Source: a virus (Duplodnaviria; Caudoviricetes). Taken from it: 64,000 nucleotides of DNA. The position numbers were made by a program, and so were the translations under genes. The stretch covers positions 32,001 to 96,000 of the IMG/VR virus record IMGVR_UViG_2608642293_000001; one strand, given 5' to 3'. Shown here one piece after another: positions 22,663 to 30,532 of the stretch (the stretch's first letter is position 1; each line of letters begins with the position of its first letter). Below the pieces are notes generated by a model. It saw nothing but the letters and a program-made list of their open reading frames with translations, did no database searches and had not been told where the DNA came from.

Positions 22663-22929
22663 ATGAATGAAAGTATATCTAATGCAATTCAAAACGGATT
22701 TGATAAAGTTTCTGATAGTATAAAGGATAAAATTTCTGGCTTTATGATCTATATTTTAAAATCTATAGGAAATTTTGCTTTAGAGAGTTCGGATATAGTT
22801 TGTCCGATAATTTGTTTAATAGCATTAGCTTTTTATATAGGCGGTAATAGAAAGGCTGGTAAATATGTTTCAGGATCATTTGTATTATATTTTATACTTC
22901 AAGCACTTAGAGGTTTTATAAAAGCATGA
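22663..22929 (+). CDS. Small two-TM membrane protein
   Basis: Hydrophobic helices flanking GNRKAGK; ATGA-coupled to the ATPase. Confidence 0.6.
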   Translation: MNESISNAIQNGFDKVSDSIKDKISGFMIYILKSIGNFALESSDIVCPIICLIALAFYIGGNRKAGKYVSGSFVLYFILQALRGFIKA

Positions 22930-25271
22930 AAAGCCTAAAATTATCTAACTATTTTGAATTAGTGAAACCAACCTACCGTTATATTAAAATTACAAGCCAT
23001 AAATCGATTCGCAATTACAATTCTGATAACTTAAGCAAATTTATTGCCCTTACCTACAAAAGCCTTGACAGAAGAATAAGAAAAGAACAAAAGAAGATAT
23101 TCTTCGAAACAACCTTTAAAATTTCCTACATTATAGATATTCAAAATAATGATTGTAGTTTTTATTTCTTGGTTCCTGAAGTGTATTTAAATATGTTATT
23201 TGAGAAAATAACAGAGATATGGAATAAAGCTACTGTTGAAGTTCTAGAGGATCCAATTAAACCTATCTCGGACAATGCTGAAATGTACCAATTATCATAC
23301 AAAAAAGAAGACGCTCTAAGTTTAAAGGTAGATAAAAAATCAAACGAACCTTTAAATTCTATTTTATCAGTTATGGATATTTTAAAGGATGATGATAGAG
23401 TAACAATAATTTATAATTTCTTACCTATAAGCCAGTTTTCATGGTTAGAAAGATATTTAGGGACTATAGAAAAATTAAAAGAAAATAAAATGGTTGATAA
23501 AAAGCAGACATCAATAGAATATTTGATTAAAACTACTGTACTATTTGTTTCAAAAATGATAACAGATTTTCTAAATGTTGTTGATGATTTCACAGGAGGA
23601 AACCCAGAACAGGAGAAAAAAAGCCTTTATGATGTTGTTATAGGGTATATGCAGAACAGAAAAGAATTGTCTCCAGCTACTAAGAAAAAGAAGGAAAGTA
23701 CTGTCCTAGATACTCAAATTGTTGTATTTTCAGAAAGCAAAGATAATATACGAAAAACTAATAATGCTTTGAGTACATGCCAAGCCTATAGGGTTTTGGA
23801 TGAAGACAACGAACTTATGTATAAAAAAGTAAAAAAGAAGATAAGAAAAAAATTCAAGGATATAGAACAAACAGATTATAGAGTAGATTACAATACTATG
23901 AGTGTAGAAGAAGTAGGGAGCACTTGTTTACAAATTCCAGCAAGAAGCCTTTTATATCAATTTAAATTGAAATTTGTTAATGTAGAAGAAGTTCAAATAC
24001 CCGAGAAACTAAGGCAAGGTTACATTACATTAGGAACCAATAAATTCAAAGGGAAAACCTACGAAACTTACTTTGAAGATCATAAAGATATAGGTTCATT
24101 AGGTTTAGTGTTGTTGGCAAGGCAAGGCGGCGGGAAAACAACTTACTTATGCCATTATTCTAAAGATTGCTTATCTAGAAAAGAAAGTATAGTACACATA
24201 GATTTTATTAGAAACAACGAAGCTAGTAAAACAATTGAAAAAGTAGTGCCTAAAGAAGATCTAATAATATTAGATTTAAGCACAGAGGAAGGATTACAAG
24301 CTCTAGCATATAATGAGATTGAATTTACAGAAAATATATCTTTATTTGAAAGGCAGGCTCTAGCTAATAAAAAGGCTGAAATGACAATACAATTAGTAGA
24401 TAGCATAAATGATAATGGAGAACCTTTAAGCCCTAAAATGAGTCGTTATTTAAGTGCTGCAGCTAATGTTATATATATTAAGGAAAATACTACCTTGAAA
24501 GATGTTATAAGATGCCTACAGGATTATAAGTTTAGAGAAGAATCAATTAATACTTGTATTCCAGATGTATTAAAAGAGGAATTTGAAGAAGAAATACAAG
24601 CTTTAGAGGAATTAGATGAATACACAAAAGCTACAAAAGATAACCCAAGCCAAAAATGTGGAACTAAGGATAGTAAAATAGAAGGGATTTTGGACCGTAT
24701 AAGTTTACTAATGAGAGATTTTTATTTAAAGAAGATGTTTAAGAAGAATCCGAAGAATAATATAAATTTCGCTAAAGCCACAGAAGAAGGGAAAGTTATA
24801 TTAATTCGTATGCAACAAAGTAAGTTTAAGGACTATGCAAAGAATGTTATTACTACTTTCTTCATTACTAAAACATGGCTGGCATGTGAGCTTAGAGGGG
24901 ACTTATCCGAGACACAACGAAGAACTCATATAATTATAGATGAAATAAGTCAAACTAAAACAGCGGAAAGATTTTTAGAAAGTAAATTAACTCAAGGTAG
25001 AAAGTTTGGATTTAAACCAGTTCTAGCGCTCCAATATTTAGATCAGCTAGATAAGAAGACAATATATTCACTTAAAGGTGCTGGATGCAGTTTTATGCTG
25101 CTTAAAGGTGCTATAAAAGAAGACTTTGAGTATTTTAAAGATGAAATAGATAACTTTGAATATGAAGATTTAAAGGAAATGAGCAAGACATATAAATATC
25201 CATCGTTTAATATTATCCAGTATTCAGATGGAGTTACAAGTTTTATAACAGAATTGCCTAAACCAGTTTAA
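22926..25271 (+). CDS. VirB4/TraG/HerA-FtsK superfamily P-loop ATPase
   Basis: Walker A ARQGGGKTT, Walker B IIIDEISQ, GRKFG...LALQYLDQL. Confidence 0.75.
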   Translation: MKSLKLSNYFELVKPTYRYIKITSHKSIRNYNSDNLSKFIALTYKSLDRRIRKEQKKIFFETTFKISYIIDIQNNDCSFYFLVPEVYLNMLFEKITEIWNKATVEVLEDPIKPISDNAEMYQLSYKKEDALSLKVDKKSNEPLNSILSVMDILKDDDRVTIIYNFLPISQFSWLERYLGTIEKLKENKMVDKKQTSIEYLIKTTVLFVSKMITDFLNVVDDFTGGNPEQEKKSLYDVVIGYMQNRKELSPATKKKKESTVLDTQIVVFSESKDNIRKTNNALSTCQAYRVLDEDNELMYKKVKKKIRKKFKDIEQTDYRVDYNTMSVEEVGSTCLQIPARSLLYQFKLKFVNVEEVQIPEKLRQGYITLGTNKFKGKTYETYFEDHKDIGSLGLVLLARQGGGKTTYLCHYSKDCLSRKESIVHIDFIRNNEASKTIEKVVPKEDLIILDLSTEEGLQALAYNEIEFTENISLFERQALANKKAEMTIQLVDSINDNGEPLSPKMSRYLSAAANVIYIKENTTLKDVIRCLQDYKFREESINTCIPDVLKEEFEEEIQALEELDEYTKATKDNPSQKCGTKDSKIEGILDRISLLMRDFYLKKMFKKNPKNNINFAKATEEGKVILIRMQQSKFKDYAKNVITTFFITKTWLACELRGDLSETQRRTHIIIDEISQTKTAERFLESKLTQGRKFGFKPVLALQYLDQLDKKTIYSLKGAGCSFMLLKGAIKEDFEYFKDEIDNFEYEDLKEMSKTYKYPSFNIIQYSDGVTSFITELPKPV

Positions 25272-25283
25272 AGACCAAGATAT

Positions 25284-25523
25284 TTAATTATCCTGGTCTT
25301 CCTCATTATCGAAATTATAATGTTGTTTGAAGTAGTGTAGGATTCTGTAAGAGCTTATTCCAAGTTCTTTAGATAACCTGAAAATCACGTTTACAGTTGG
25401 GTTACAAGCGCTAGGGTGCTTTTCCATTTTAGATAGATAAGATTTACTAACCCCAATTTTAAGAGCCAATTCAGTTAAAGAAAGTTCTTTTTCAGTTCGC
25501 TTTTCCTCGAGCAGGCAAACCAC
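25284..25523 (-). CDS. XRE-family HTH regulator
   Basis: LSLTELALKIGVSKSYLSKME. Confidence 0.75.
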   Translation of the reverse strand: MVCLLEEKRTEKELSLTELALKIGVSKSYLSKMEKHPSACNPTVNVIFRLSKELGISSYRILHYFKQHYNFDNEEDQDN

Positions 25524-26018: not shown

Positions 26019-26246
26019 TTATTTAGGGTAAGGTTTTCTGATGCTAGTCCTACCAAGCAGAAAATCTGTACTAACTTCATAAAAATCAGCAAATAATTCA
26101 ATCATTTGAATAGATGGCTCATATGTACCATTTTCATAATGAGCGTATGCTGATCTAGATATATTAAGTTTTTTAGAGAGCTCGACCTGAGTGAGTTCGG
26201 CTTCGTTTCTAAGATATGTTAATCTTTTAGATAGCAATTTTATCAC
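26019..26246 (-). CDS. XRE-family HTH regulator
   Basis: LTQVELSKKLNISRSAYAHYENG...VSTDFLLGRT. Confidence 0.85.
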   Translation of the reverse strand: MIKLLSKRLTYLRNEAELTQVELSKKLNISRSAYAHYENGTYEPSIQMIELFADFYEVSTDFLLGRTSIRKPYPK

Positions 26247-26657: not shown

Positions 26658-26694
26658 AAATAAAGGGCCAACTTGAGTAGTTGACCCTTTATTT
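26658..26694. terminator. Bidirectional terminator
   Basis: aaataaagggccaact...agttgaccctttattt between convergent genes. Confidence 0.65.
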
Positions 26695-27119
26695 CATAGA
26701 ATATTATATTCTTTTAATAACTTATATTTATCTCTGCTTACATTATTAGAACCATTTTCCCAACTGCACCAAGCTGTAATGCTTATATTAGTGAGATTAC
26801 ATACTTCCTTTATAGATAAGTTATTTTGTTTTCGATAGTTTAATAACTTTTCACTAGAGTTATTTGTTTCCTCCAAATATGTATCGTAAAAATATTTCGT
26901 ATCAAGATTGAAGTGAAGAGCTAATTTTTGTGAGATTTCTCGTCCAGGTAATTTTCTACCTAATTCAATATCTTTTATACATGATCCTTTACTAAAACCA
27001 ACTATTTCAGCCAATTTATCTTGAGTTAGGTCATTTTTTAATCGATGAAATTTTAACTTATCACCTATAGTTTTGCCAAAATCAAACATATTAATTTTAT
27101 ATGTAGTTAGAATGTTCAT
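26694..27119 (-). CDS. Tandem XRE-HTH protein starting at the prophage junction (candidate directionality factor or regulator)
   Basis: Two HTH units (LTQDKLAEIVG; LSIKEVCNLTNIS...WENG); its ATG lies in cotJC-derived sequence. Confidence 0.75.
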   Translation of the reverse strand: MNILTTYKINMFDFGKTIGDKLKFHRLKNDLTQDKLAEIVGFSKGSCIKDIELGRKLPGREISQKLALHFNLDTKYFYDTYLEETNNSSEKLLNYRKQNNLSIKEVCNLTNISITAWCSWENGSNNVSRDKYKLLKEYNIL

Positions 27120-27274
27120 GGATTTCCTGTTGCATCTGTATAAAATACTGCTTTTCTATGATCAGCATAATGCCCAGCAAGTCCTGCTTTTTTTATCTCT
27201 TCTATAGTTGCATTTTCCATAAGTTGATATACCATTGTAGCAATTATTTCTACATGGGCCATTTCTTCTGTTCC
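27116..27274 (-). pseudogene. cotJC: Internal fragment of spore coat protein CotJC (Mn-catalase family), isolated between two prophages
   Basis: Translates GTEEMAHVEIIATMVYQLMENATIEEIKKAGLAGHYADHRKAVFYTDATGNP*, matching the GTEE.AH.E...GNPW core of CotJC; similarity stops abruptly at both ends. Confidence 0.85.
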
Positions 27275-28929
27275 GTTGACTTAAATGCAGAATTTCCGAA
27301 ATCTTTTCTTTCAAGACTAGAACCGATTGGGACTACTGTTAAAGAATTATTATCACTATCCCAAACTACGAATTTAACAACACTAGATATAAGTCTTTTT
27401 TTATCTTCAAAAGTTTGGGTGAAATCATAGAATTTTTTAAAATTATCATATATATCAAGTATTTCAGAAATATCTTTCTTTATATCAAGGATAGTATCAT
27501 TTTCTGTTTTTAATTTAATAATATTATCTTCCAATTCTTTGTTTTCTTTACGCAGTTGTCTTATTTCATTCTCATAAGTATCAATCATTTCTTCTTCGTT
27601 CGATTTGGCGACCCGCCTTGATAAATTACTAATCATTTCTTTATTTTCAGATATTTTTTTAGTTAACTTAATTATTAAATCATTGTTATTAGTTTTTACA
27701 GCAGCTCTTTGCTTAAAATCTAGATAGGTGTTCATAATCTCGTCTTCAGTCATACTCTTAATTCTATTAACAACATAATCTTCAGCATCATATGCATTTA
27801 GTGAAGTGTTATCACATCTATTTCCGGCTTTATTCTTCAAATTGCAGGTGTAGTACCTGTATATACTTTCAGTACCATTAATAAGTTTATTAAATTGCTT
27901 TCTAGGAGCCATACTAGAACCACAATGCCCACAAATGACCAATCCACTTAAAAGTGCATTTATACTAGTATATTGCCTATTAGATGCTTTTAATTTAATT
28001 TCTTCACAAATATCTTGACATTTAATCCAATCCTGGCTGCATATTATTCCAGGATGGTCACCTATAGATATTAACCAATCTTCTGTAGGCGCAAAGCTGC
28101 CATTTTCTTTTCTTCGATTATAGGGCATTATGCCATTGACACCATTGGCATATTCTCTTCTATAAATTTCACAACCTTCATCTTTAAAGAAATCAAGAAT
28201 TAAATTATCAGCTATAACATAAACTGGATTATTTATCATTTGCTTAACGAGCTCTCTTGAAAAAACGCGTCCTTTACGGCTGTAAATACCTTGATTTTCT
28301 AATGTCAAACTAACTTTTTGAAAACTTTTATATTTTTTAAATAACTCAAATACTAATTTCACAGTTTTAATGTCGTTTTCTTCAATTTGGAGTATATGCT
28401 TTTTTCTACTTTTTCCTCTTAAATCATTATTTTCAACTTGAATAGATATATAGCCTAAAGGAGCAGGTCCACCTAGCCATCTACCAGTTTTACTTAATTC
28501 TCTAAGATTGTCTTGTATACGTTCCGCTATGGTTTCTCTTTCAAGTTGTGCAAAGGTAGCAGATATATTCATCATAGCTCTTCCCATTGCAGTAGAAGTA
28601 TCAAATTGCTCTTTAATACTTACGAAGGAGACATCAAATTTATCTAAAACATTAAGAGTATTAGTGAAGTCTGCAACATTTCTGGAAATTCTATCAAGTC
28701 GATAACAGATAAGATGGGTAAAATATTTATTTTTAATATCTCTCATAAGTTTTTGAAATTGAGGCCTGTTTGTATTGCCTCCAGAAAAGCCTTCATCCTC
28801 ATATACTTCATATTCTGCGATATTTAGAACATTTTGGGCATATTTAATACACATATTAATCTGATTTTCTATAGATTCTCCCTCTTCTGTAAATTTACTT
28901 TTACGAGAATAAATTGCAATTTTAGACAT
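27250..28929 (-). CDS. Large serine recombinase (integrase)
   Basis: IAIYSRKS catalytic motif, YRLDRISR, GGPAPLGY, zinc ribbon LLSGLVICGHCG...YYTC, coiled coil. Confidence 0.95.
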   Translation of the reverse strand: MSKIAIYSRKSKFTEEGESIENQINMCIKYAQNVLNIAEYEVYEDEGFSGGNTNRPQFQKLMRDIKNKYFTHLICYRLDRISRNVADFTNTLNVLDKFDVSFVSIKEQFDTSTAMGRAMMNISATFAQLERETIAERIQDNLRELSKTGRWLGGPAPLGYISIQVENNDLRGKSRKKHILQIEENDIKTVKLVFELFKKYKSFQKVSLTLENQGIYSRKGRVFSRELVKQMINNPVYVIADNLILDFFKDEGCEIYRREYANGVNGIMPYNRRKENGSFAPTEDWLISIGDHPGIICSQDWIKCQDICEEIKLKASNRQYTSINALLSGLVICGHCGSSMAPRKQFNKLINGTESIYRYYTCNLKNKAGNRCDNTSLNAYDAEDYVVNRIKSMTEDEIMNTYLDFKQRAAVKTNNNDLIIKLTKKISENKEMISNLSRRVAKSNEEEMIDTYENEIRQLRKENKELEDNIIKLKTENDTILDIKKDISEILDIYDNFKKFYDFTQTFEDKKRLISSVVKFVVWDSDNNSLTVVPIGSSLERKDFGNSAFKSTEQKKWPM

Positions 28930-28957
28930 CTAATCAACTCCTATTTCAAAAAAAGAA

Positions 28958-29422
28958 TTAAAATATATCATTTCTTAAAACTCCAAATCCTGGTTCAAAA
29001 TAAAGAATTATATTTTCACACTCTTTATACATACCATGTTTGCGTCTATGATACTCAATAGCTTCATCAAAAAACTTATCCGTTAATGTTAAATATTCAG
29101 CAACCTCATATCTGTCATTAGCACCATTTTTAATAGCTCTTACTATTTGTTTTAGACTGCAAACTCTTTCAATACTTTCAGCTCTTGCTGCATTTTCTAA
29201 TTTCTTATTTATTATACTATCTAGGTTTAATATATTTCCTGATGTGGTTTTAAAATGTCCTATTTCCTCTGACAATATCCAGTATTTTTGCTTTTCGCAT
29301 AAATTCTTATTTATAAATAATACTTCATTAAGACAATAACCTGACTCACCCTCTAAATCCATTTCAACTACAACAGCGCCAATATTTTCAGCTTCAACAA
29401 TAAGCTTTTCATATGCAGTCAT
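28958..29422 (-). CDS. ImmA/IrrE-family metallopeptidase (anti-repressor)
   Basis: LSEEIGH motif; lies between integrase and repressor. Confidence 0.8.
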   Translation of the reverse strand: MTAYEKLIVEAENIGAVVVEMDLEGESGYCLNEVLFINKNLCEKQKYWILSEEIGHFKTTSGNILNLDSIINKKLENAARAESIERVCSLKQIVRAIKNGANDRYEVAEYLTLTDKFFDEAIEYHRRKHGMYKECENIILYFEPGFGVLRNDIF

Positions 29423-29448
29423 TAATCCCCCCACCTATCTATTTAAAG

Positions 29449-29991
29449 CTATTTATTATGCATTTCTTTATATTTTGCTTTAATTTTTTCTATATTTCTA
29501 GCATTTGCATCATCACGGATATTATCATTATGGGCAGCTAAGATTTCTATTTCAGGTTCTCTATTATTTTTATAAGATTTTCTGCATTTACTTGTTATTT
29601 CCGATATTTTAAATTTTATAAATGAATCGGCACTTTTTTGTAAATCAATTATGTCATTCTCAGATATTTCATATTCAGCATCTGTTGTATTTAGAATCAA
29701 ATAACCTTCAGGATCATATATGATTTCATAACCTAGATTTTGCAGGTATTGTTCTATGAAATAGTTTCTTTTTGTTTCAATTTTAATATCACTTTTATTT
29801 TCATCAACAAGTTGAGATAAAGTTAAGCCTAATCCTTTTGAAAGATTAGAAAGAGTTTCAACACTAGGATTGTATCTATTCCTTTCAATATCGGCTAGAT
29901 AAGATCGTGATATTGAAGCTTTTTTTGCTAAGTCAACTTGAGTCAATTTTTGCATCTTTCTTAGTTCTTTTATTTTGGTTCCTACATCCAT
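29449..29991 (-). CDS. CI-like XRE repressor
   Basis: N-terminal HTH LTQVDLAKKASISRSYLADIERN, C-terminal ILAAHND; RBS GGAGG. Confidence 0.85.
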   Translation of the reverse strand: MDVGTKIKELRKMQKLTQVDLAKKASISRSYLADIERNRYNPSVETLSNLSKGLGLTLSQLVDENKSDIKIETKRNYFIEQYLQNLGYEIIYDPEGYLILNTTDAEYEISENDIIDLQKSADSFIKFKISEITSKCRKSYKNNREPEIEILAAHNDNIRDDANARNIEKIKAKYKEMHNK

Positions 29992-30006
29992 TTCAAATAC
30001 CTCCAT

Positions 30007-30452
30007 GTCGTAATTTCCGACTATTAATATTTACAGTATATAACAATGGTGACGTAAAGGCAATACTAATAAAGTCGTAAATACAAGTAAAAAGGAGCGA
30101 TATTTAGCAAATGAGAGAAAAAACATGTATTTTACTCCATAAAGGTCGTAAATACTGTTATTTAATTCTTTACTTATTGTCGTTAATACAATACAATAAG
30201 GACATGGTAAATAGAGAGGAGGAATTAATGATGAATGAGAGTTCTAAAAAAAAGATAGGCAATATAATAAAAGAAGCTCGGATCAATAAAAATAAAACAC
30301 AACAGAATTTGGCTGATGAATGCTATTTGTCTAGAACTTATATTTCTGACATAGAAAGTGGGAGATATTCTCCGAGTGTAGGAACTTTGATTAATATTTT
30401 TAACAAATTAAATATCAATTTTAATTTAATTAAAAATGTCGTAAATACAGAC
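30007..30452. promoter_or_regulatory. Repressor operator repeats GTCGTAAATAC
   Basis: Exact copies at 30074, 30145 and 30438, variants at 30007 and 30179, around the divergent cI/cro promoters. Confidence 0.65.
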
Positions 30453-30467
30453 ATAAATAATGAATGA
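30228..30467 (+). CDS. Cro-like XRE regulator
   Basis: KTQQNLADECYLSRTYISDIESG; RBS GAGGAGG before 30228. Confidence 0.8.
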   Translation: MMNESSKKKIGNIIKEARINKNKTQQNLADECYLSRTYISDIESGRYSPSVGTLINIFNKLNINFNLIKNVVNTDINNE

Positions 30468-30532
30468 GTTCATTAGCAAAATTTAGAGCTATTGAATATT
30501 ATGAATTGTATAATTTCATAAAAGGTGAAGCT

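Follow-up and report, generated by a model that had tools for sequence, protein, structure and literature searches.

The stretch analysed here (the window; 64,000 nucleotides, nt) covers positions 32001-96000 of a provirus record of 108,873 bp (IMG/VR IMGVR_UViG_2608642293_000001), in which two prophages interrupt the sporulation gene cotJC. At the edge of one of them, prophage 1, an open reading frame (ORF) of 141 codons plus TGA that starts with ATG lies on the minus strand (26694..27119) and encodes two helix-turn-helix (HTH) stretches; it is referred to here as the twin-HTH ORF. This ORF is very probably the C-terminal tail of the phage's own serine integrase, int1, cut off since the phage attachment site attP lies inside the gene. 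At the level of sequence, the free phage is shown to carry int and the twin-HTH frame as one gene, which is split by integration. The ATG, its ATGA overlap with a cotJC stop codon, and the AGGA motif upstream are accidents of the att join and not a conserved device.

The two ends of prophage 1 form one reading frame

Prophage 1 (~59 kb) reaches from base 51 of the record to window position 27116. Its integrase gene int1 (record bases 4-1671; 556 amino acids, aa, from its ATG) lies at the left extremity of the prophage, beyond the window, and is co-directional with the twin-HTH ORF. The encoded protein matches the Pfam families Resolvase (127 bits), Recombinase (48 bits), and Zn_ribbon_recom (59 bits), all above the cut-offs and in the domain order of a large serine recombinase. 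An 8-bp core, AATCCATG on the minus strand (27117..27124), is found at both prophage 1 junctions and contains the ATG of the twin-HTH ORF. When the host flanks were joined through this core by script, a single CotJC frame was restored, and when the phage ends were joined in the same way, one stop-free frame of 688 codons was obtained, in which int1 is in phase with the twin-HTH ORF. The computed joint reads ...QLDSSSES-M-NILTTYK..., i.e., the ATG is an internal Met (E-S-M) of the long frame. The twin-HTH ORF is a stand-alone frame only in the integrated state, in which int1 ends with a 16-residue tail read out of frame from cotJC.

The minus-strand text of the HTH-side junction is ...gatgcaacaggaaatccATGAacattctaac..., and the cotJC frame ends there as ...GGA AAT CCA TGA, its TGA overlapping the ATG of the twin-HTH ORF, just as described in the original prediction, an earlier reading made from the sequence alone. 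Other details of that prediction were also borne out: the A at 27116 is the first base that differs from the host and creates the TGA, and the 141-aa ORF lacks a phage-side ribosome-binding site (RBS), the AGGA upstream of it being host-derived. This AGGA (27125..27128, minus strand), a weak Shine-Dalgarno (SD)-like motif from the cotJC codons ACA GGA, is located 5 nt before the ATG, and both stem from host codons, as indicated by junction comparison and by reads of a non-lysogen (see below), in which host identity extends through the ATG. The int-side junction carries GCGA where the HTH-side junction carries AGGA. The start codon and the ATGA overlap are present because the host codons CCA TGG lie inside the att core common to attP and the bacterial site attB, and the phage-side RBS is missing because the DNA upstream of the module is integrase coding sequence. 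Regarding the claim that integration builds the start of the gene, the stand-alone ORF does begin at the junction, but the ATG itself is already present in the 8-bp core at both junctions.

In the rejoined site, the best dyad centre is the AA that opens the core, with 17 of the 25 flanking positions agreeing (13 for the next best), and the ATG sits 3 nt on the phage (P') side of it. Serine integrases cut with a two-base stagger at the centre of the site, so the ATG in the prophage junction would be on the phage side. Codons 1-12 of the twin-HTH ORF (MNILTTYKINMF; 27084..27119, minus strand) encode the flexible linker in the full-length integrase and, at the DNA level, form the P' arm of attP. 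This arm is conserved in two other Clostridium cotJC loci that carry the module (L051 and L064) and in a viral record described below (L099). The break in the integrase falls ~5-10 residues beyond the ends of unextended relatives (int2, the integrase of prophage 2, and L087), and the prophage form thus keeps a complete recombinase.

Fused int-HTH forms in other sequences

A profile-free search with the twin-HTH ORF among 1.84 billion representatives gave 478 relatives at E<=0.001. One of the best 150, P0004 (676 aa, matched at residues 541-670), is a fusion with the Pfam domains Resolvase, Recombinase, Zn_ribbon_recom, HTH_19, and HTH_3; the remaining long matches that were scanned are multi-HTH repeat proteins without a recombinase. 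A second search yielded P0151 (681 aa), which has the same five domains, and the joints of both proteins align with the computed int1-HTH joint.

Single-sequence queries (twin-HTH ORF, P0004) found no close relatives in IMG/VR, and a scan with an alignment as the query gave 14 viral loci with module relatives. The module lies at most 82 nt from the edge of the record in 11 of these, abuts host genes in two, and is fused in one, L099, where it ends a 688-codon frame with recombinase and HTH domains (Pfam). L099 matches the int-side junction locus L086 over its first 2998 nt (99.9% identity) and the HTH-side junction locus L051 over 665 nt from position 2989 onwards (99.5% identity); the two matches overlap in a 10-nt core, AGGAAATCCT. 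Judged by these identities, L099 is the real attP form of the prophage that occupies the same cotJC site in the Clostridium disporicum genome G001. Within its attP (L099:2945-3037), 17-nt inverted arms are centred in the core and located 30-46 nt from the centre. A serine-integrase half-site measures ~25 nt, and these arms, which lie further out than expected, might be sites for the HTH tail or a product of chance in AT-rich DNA.

Both ends are known for three cotJC lysogens (the present one, G001, and G002), whose prophages are 56-65% identical, and in each of them the int frame is in phase with the HTH frame. Their shared cores of 8, 10, and 5 bp, respectively, represent short att sites. The frame of L096, a fragment, likewise runs past the joint to the end of the contig. 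Furthermore, in a more distant lineage, the phage vB_CpeS-CP51, which was sequenced from virions, has an annotated integrase of 655 aa with HTH_3 at 600-654 in addition to the three recombinase domains; the integrase of the G002 prophage (L088) is 60% identical to it and stops where the similarity ends, at SHSMSS. Taken together, attP is located in the 3' coding part of int and the remainder is found in frame at the other prophage end, i.e., the integrase is of the self-truncating type. Integrase ends alone were found in G003 and G004. In G003, the integrase of an IMG/VR provirus (L095) is 86% identical to P0151 and ends with ...SESMDCHIYSSKRR, an out-of-frame cotJC tail as in int1; the opposite end of this provirus lies outside the record.

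Structure and conservation of the module

Pfam assigned HTH_19 to two stretches of the twin-HTH ORF (E 3e-16, 59.5 bits, cut-off 30.2), along with HTH_3 (E 3.6e-9, 37 bits), in line with the double HTH that had been predicted. The curated cut-off and a repressor-like fold place the protein among the Cro/cI (XRE) type HTH proteins. An AlphaFold2 model built from an 18-sequence alignment has a mean confidence (predicted local distance difference test, pLDDT) of 90.4, with residues 1-12 disordered (pLDDT <50) and nine helices thereafter. Both halves are similar to the DNA-binding domains of P22 c2, 434 repressor/Cro, and SinR, and the single domains superpose on P22 c2 with template modelling (TM) scores of 0.79-0.81 and a root mean square deviation of 0.8-1.1 Å. 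No solved chain matched the whole tandem at E<=0.001 in a Foldseek search. The module has no similarity to the phage's own repressor (E 0.49), which argues against shared operators, and only a generic HTH likeness to the repressor of prophage 2 (E 4e-4).

The module is under purifying selection: the ratio of non-synonymous to synonymous substitution rates (dN/dS) is 0.17-0.34 among the present module, L051, and L064 (Nei-Gojobori script; dS near saturation), and none of 20,000 composition shuffles kept the frame open. The start codon shows a different picture. The ATGA overlap, which the original prediction proposed to look for in other cotJC-inserted prophages and whose absence from relatives it had named beforehand as a refutation, is found in neither of the two genome relatives with the module at the same cotJC site, so that there is no coupled pair in these loci. 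L064 has TTG in place of ATG, since its host uses CCT for proline, and its truncated cotJC stops (TAA) three codons later. L051 has TAT at this position, and its intact 165-codon frame, in which the module is 56% identical to the present one, contains no ATG, GTG, or TTG. The viral record L098 likewise holds an intact module frame of 144 codons without ATG, GTG, or TTG.

A further module, in L103, lies antisense to a truncated asparagine synthase gene, which contradicts sense read-through from a host operon as a general feature. Its N-terminal extension (..YKSATFW..), common in database relatives, is read from host asparagine synthase DNA. The neighbouring gene of L103 encodes an ATPase of 770-781 aa, as in the window, yet the module sits at the asparagine synthase gene, and the phage family therefore uses different host genes. 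The orphan frame thus seems to take whatever start the host DNA offers.

A putative integrase with a long and a short form

In the proposed explanation, attP would sit in a linker of roughly 25 codons between the recombinase core and the twin Cro/cI-type HTH module, and the integrase encoded by the unintegrated phage would be a long one (Int-L, 688 codons). Upon recombination with attB in cotJC, the gene would be split into Int-S (556 aa, core-complete) at one end and the orphan twin-HTH frame at the other. The module would normally be made only as part of Int-L, i.e., after infection and after excision, and the integrase isoforms would depend on the integration state. The tail may act in attP-side recombination or synapsis, or as a regulator in the establishment phase, and would be switched off by integration. 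Whether the long form (free DNA only) and the short form (prophage only) also differ in site preference, directionality, or regulatory activity, so that the att state determines how the enzyme behaves across several Clostridium phage lineages and at different host genes, is a more tentative proposal, for which we consider the chances to be clearly below even.

Several observations weigh against the severed-tail explanation. The 688-codon frame of the present phage was computed from two prophage ends, and neither attP-form DNA nor the Int-L protein of this phage was seen. Fused forms are rare, amounting to two clusters in the second search, one of the 150 best representatives, one of the 14 viral loci, and CP51. 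A search of INPHARED with the module gave two weak matches, one of which is Clostridium phage HM T; in its circular record KU517658.1 (L083, L084), the integrase stop lies 97 nt before the HTH frame, which is in another frame. A start at the joint is present in several lysogens (ATG in the present one, TTG in L064, and M in the called proteins P0001 and P0002), and a role of the orphan fragment in some lysogens is possible. Regarding HM T, a single-HTH frame is located at the other end of the record, a GC-rich hairpin lies between the integrase stop and the HTH frame, and the record cites host locus tags; attP may be misrepresented by the deposited joint, or the HM T lineage may be unfused.

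Alternative explanations

The alternative that survives best follows the original prediction: the twin-HTH ORF would be a gene of its own in the lysogen, started by integration and coupled to cotJC, which encodes a sporulation- or int2-driven directionality factor or regulator for timed or ordered excision. We consider this improbable, despite the presence of the ATGA overlap and the AGGA. On the minus strand, int2 (27250-28929), the cotJC piece (27117-27274), and the twin-HTH ORF (26694-27119) follow each other, their ORFs overlap as a chain, and a terminator scan detected no terminator-like site from the end of int2 to the ATG at 27119. Incidental expression of the twin-HTH frame from the int2 transcript is therefore possible in the double lysogen, where ATG, AGGA, and overlap are all present. 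A strong terminator-like hairpin directly after the twin-HTH stop (26658..26694, minus strand, RNA fold; -21.7 kcal/mol, z -6.73, equalled by none of 200 shuffles, and not called by a simple terminator scan) would suit a separate gene, and it marks, as expected, the end of an int-HTH transcription unit. The common start position in L064, P0001, and P0002 also favours a separate gene, and an HTH protein is eligible as a recombination directionality factor (RDF) in so far as known RDFs share no motif, according to the accessible text of PMC12286644. Against this stand the absence of the overlap in both relatives and a start-less G001/L098 lineage in which the module is nonetheless intact. In addition, six of the eight cotJC loci interrupted at the same site lack the module, a relative carries it antisense to the asparagine synthase gene, and prophage 2 here lies between the cotJ promoter and the ORF. 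A role as a directionality factor is unlikely in particular, because in unintegrated DNA, the attP state, the module forms part of the integrase, and a sister lineage has no start for it. Engineered integrase-RDF fusions reportedly favour excision, which would be unwanted by a phage that needs integration after infection.

It is far less probable that the ORF is an ordinary phage regulator, unrelated to the integrase, with its own promoter and a start at the internal Met. In XRE-type proteins, helix 1 is often preceded by just a few residues, codon 11 (27089) is indeed an ATG, and small HTH genes follow on the same strand (26019-26246 and 25284-25523). However, this Met is found only in the closest relative, P0001, and is replaced by I or L in P0002, P0004, P0151, L051, and L064; no SD motif precedes the codon-11 ATG, and the conservation of the protein continues up to the junction. 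Promoter-like matches around the region are at chance level (29 seen, 31.9 expected), and the only strong one nearby on the minus strand (27079-27050) lies downstream of both ATGs. Least probable of all is that the in-phase fusion is a coincidence or an artefact of assembly or gene calling and that the integrase normally ends near its att site: one frame in three is in phase by chance and int2-type integrases do end in this way, with relatives' P' arms that have stops in three frames, but the phase is kept in three diverged prophages, four independent fused ORFs exist (P0004, P0151, L099, and CP51, the last being an annotated 655-aa coding sequence in a deposited genome), and L096 also continues past the joint.

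Relation to known systems

A serine integrase with attP in its C-terminal coding region is described for the SPbeta-like Bacillus phage vB_BsuS-Goe14 in the accessible text of Kohm et al. (bioRxiv 10.1101/2021.11.22.469490), where integration into spoVK removes 131 aa from the integrase and gives rise to a new 97-aa ORF at the other end. In that text, a regulatory meaning is put forward as speculation, in which the long and the short integrase would be used for integration and excision, and the extension is stated to resemble no known structure (10.1101/2021.11.22.469490). The present system is similar in its large serine recombinase, its attP in the 3' coding region of int, and its sporulation-related target gene. 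It differs from Goe14, which belongs to another phage family and infects Bacillus, in that its tail is a recognisable tandem of Cro/cI-type HTH domains, from which the Goe14 tail is set apart by its description; it moreover extends to several Clostridium lineages, a real attP/attL/attR triplet, and a start-less orphan. Self-truncating serine integrases are thus already known, and an XRE-type twin-HTH tail split by attP would, from its sequence, be a new form of them. A literature search (coverage incomplete, supplements excluded) retrieved no account of a serine integrase whose tail is XRE-type and is split by attP.

Other systems share part of this arrangement. In SSV1-type archaeal tyrosine integrases, attP is inside the gene and the split destroys the enzyme, which is called 'suicidal' in the accessible text of PMC8371274. 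Integration fragments the integrase gene in both cases, but the serine recombinase core survives whole here and the accessory tail alone is removed. The mycobacteriophages BPs and Brujita have integration-dependent immunity, with attP inside the repressor gene and a tyrosine integrase. There, too, the free and integrated forms encode different C-termini and integration is a switch; the split gene is, in contrast, the serine integrase itself in the present system and not the repressor. Elements that intervene in sporulation genes are also known, e.g., skin in sigK and SPbeta in spsM with SprA/SprB, which rely on an RDF encoded by a gene of its own under a sporulation-dependent promoter. Likewise, a large-serine-recombinase prophage interrupts a mother-cell sporulation gene here, although no separate sporulation-controlled RDF gene was identified in the present system. 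Lastly, engineered integrase-RDF fusions (PMC5737554) and linker design for such fusions (PMC12286644) are described in the accessible parts of two articles. These synthetic constructs resemble the present integrase by an extra module on a flexible linker at the C-terminus of a large serine integrase; they contain a known RDF, whereas the present fusion occurs naturally, carries a DNA-binding tandem HTH as its module, and loses it by recombination itself.

Small "XRE-family regulators" at the edges of Clostridium prophages can thus be severed integrase tails, with starts that are maybe borrowed from the host. Control of directionality is the central open issue for these enzymes, and a DNA-binding module that is naturally gained and lost with each recombination permits a comparison of long and short forms, the difference between which has so far been a matter of speculation for one Bacillus phage.

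The host gene cotJC and its two insertion sites

Between the two prophages lies a middle fragment of cotJC (27117..27274, minus strand; 158 nt, 52 codons, GTEEMAH...TGNP). It matches Mn_catalase with 32.4 bits, which is above the cut-off, and is 96.2% identical at the nucleotide level to cotJC of Clostridium beijerinckii HUN142 (98% amino acid identity in a protein comparison). An ORF of 48 aa in the ORF list (27116..27262, minus strand) covers most of it, and its TGA overlaps the twin-HTH ATG. The last 50 minus-strand bases of the record continue CotJC (NPWTATYIQAKGDVIA).

Raw RNA reads were available from two runs (X21 and X23) of another strain with the same species label and an intact cotJC. 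These non-lysogen reads cover only 27117-27275 and run into intact cotJC at both ends. At 27117, they pass into the sequence of the first 50 bases of the record, i.e., the 3' part of cotJC, in 22 of 48 reads in X21 and 144 of 268 in X23, with an agreement of 1. As non-lysogen reads run through the site, attB in cotJC is confirmed. Neither prophage had reads in these two runs, which stem from a strain without the prophages. In two metagenome runs, DNA of a prophage-2-like integrase and cotJC were present and the twin-HTH module was absent. In the dairy metagenome run X3, contigs near-identical to the integrase and immunity region of prophage 2 (window 27242-30500) were observed, with 8 differences in 1615 nt; this run also contained cotJC and lacked the twin-HTH module.

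According to Abe et al. 2013, as cited in the accessible text of Kohm et al. (10.1101/2021.11.22.469490), cotJC is a frequent prophage target. Site 1 (GNP|W, window 27117) is interrupted in eight of 80 Clostridium cotJC loci (L002-L081), with at least three junction types: GNA* (L009, L011, L018, and L035), GNPC (L012 and L021), and the HTH type (L051 and L064). The twin-HTH module is present in two of these eight loci, namely those of the HTH type. At site 2 (before GTEE, window 27275), the open frame begins at the match in six of the 80 loci, four of which have an int2-like recombinase directly upstream. In the present record, cotJC is interrupted at both sites and a large serine recombinase lies at each int-side junction, as in intervening elements of the skin/SPbeta type. 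As a doubly used and recurrent target in spore formers, cotJC accommodates three or more kinds of inserts at a single site. In genome G009, one contig end (L004) is intact across site 2 and another contig (L112) begins 63 nt upstream of that cotJC stretch with sequence of phage type; these two forms could represent a mixture of occupied and empty sites, or a branch in the assembly.

Prophage 2 and neighbouring genes

The large serine integrase of prophage 2, int2 (27250..28929, minus strand), has the Pfam domains Resolvase, Recombinase, and Zn_ribbon_recom and is 38% identical to int1. It is co-directional with the twin-HTH ORF, and cotJC DNA supplies its last codons. The far end of prophage 2 and the 5' part of cotJC lie outside the record. 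A severed tail on prophage 2 was considered and rejected, given that in four relatives every reading frame of the P' arm is closed by a stop after a few codons. An int2-type integrase merely ends at its att site, with no tail to be severed. Judged by the phage arms of relatives (L113-L115), the free form of int2 would end about two codons past the crossover, so that the two states differ by a few residues.

Convergent to the twin-HTH module, a gene for a 781-aa P-loop ATPase (window 22926-25271, plus strand) has a weak match to TrwB_AAD_bind. Three viral records integrated elsewhere (L101-L103) also show this ATPase paired with the module, at 38-47% identity.

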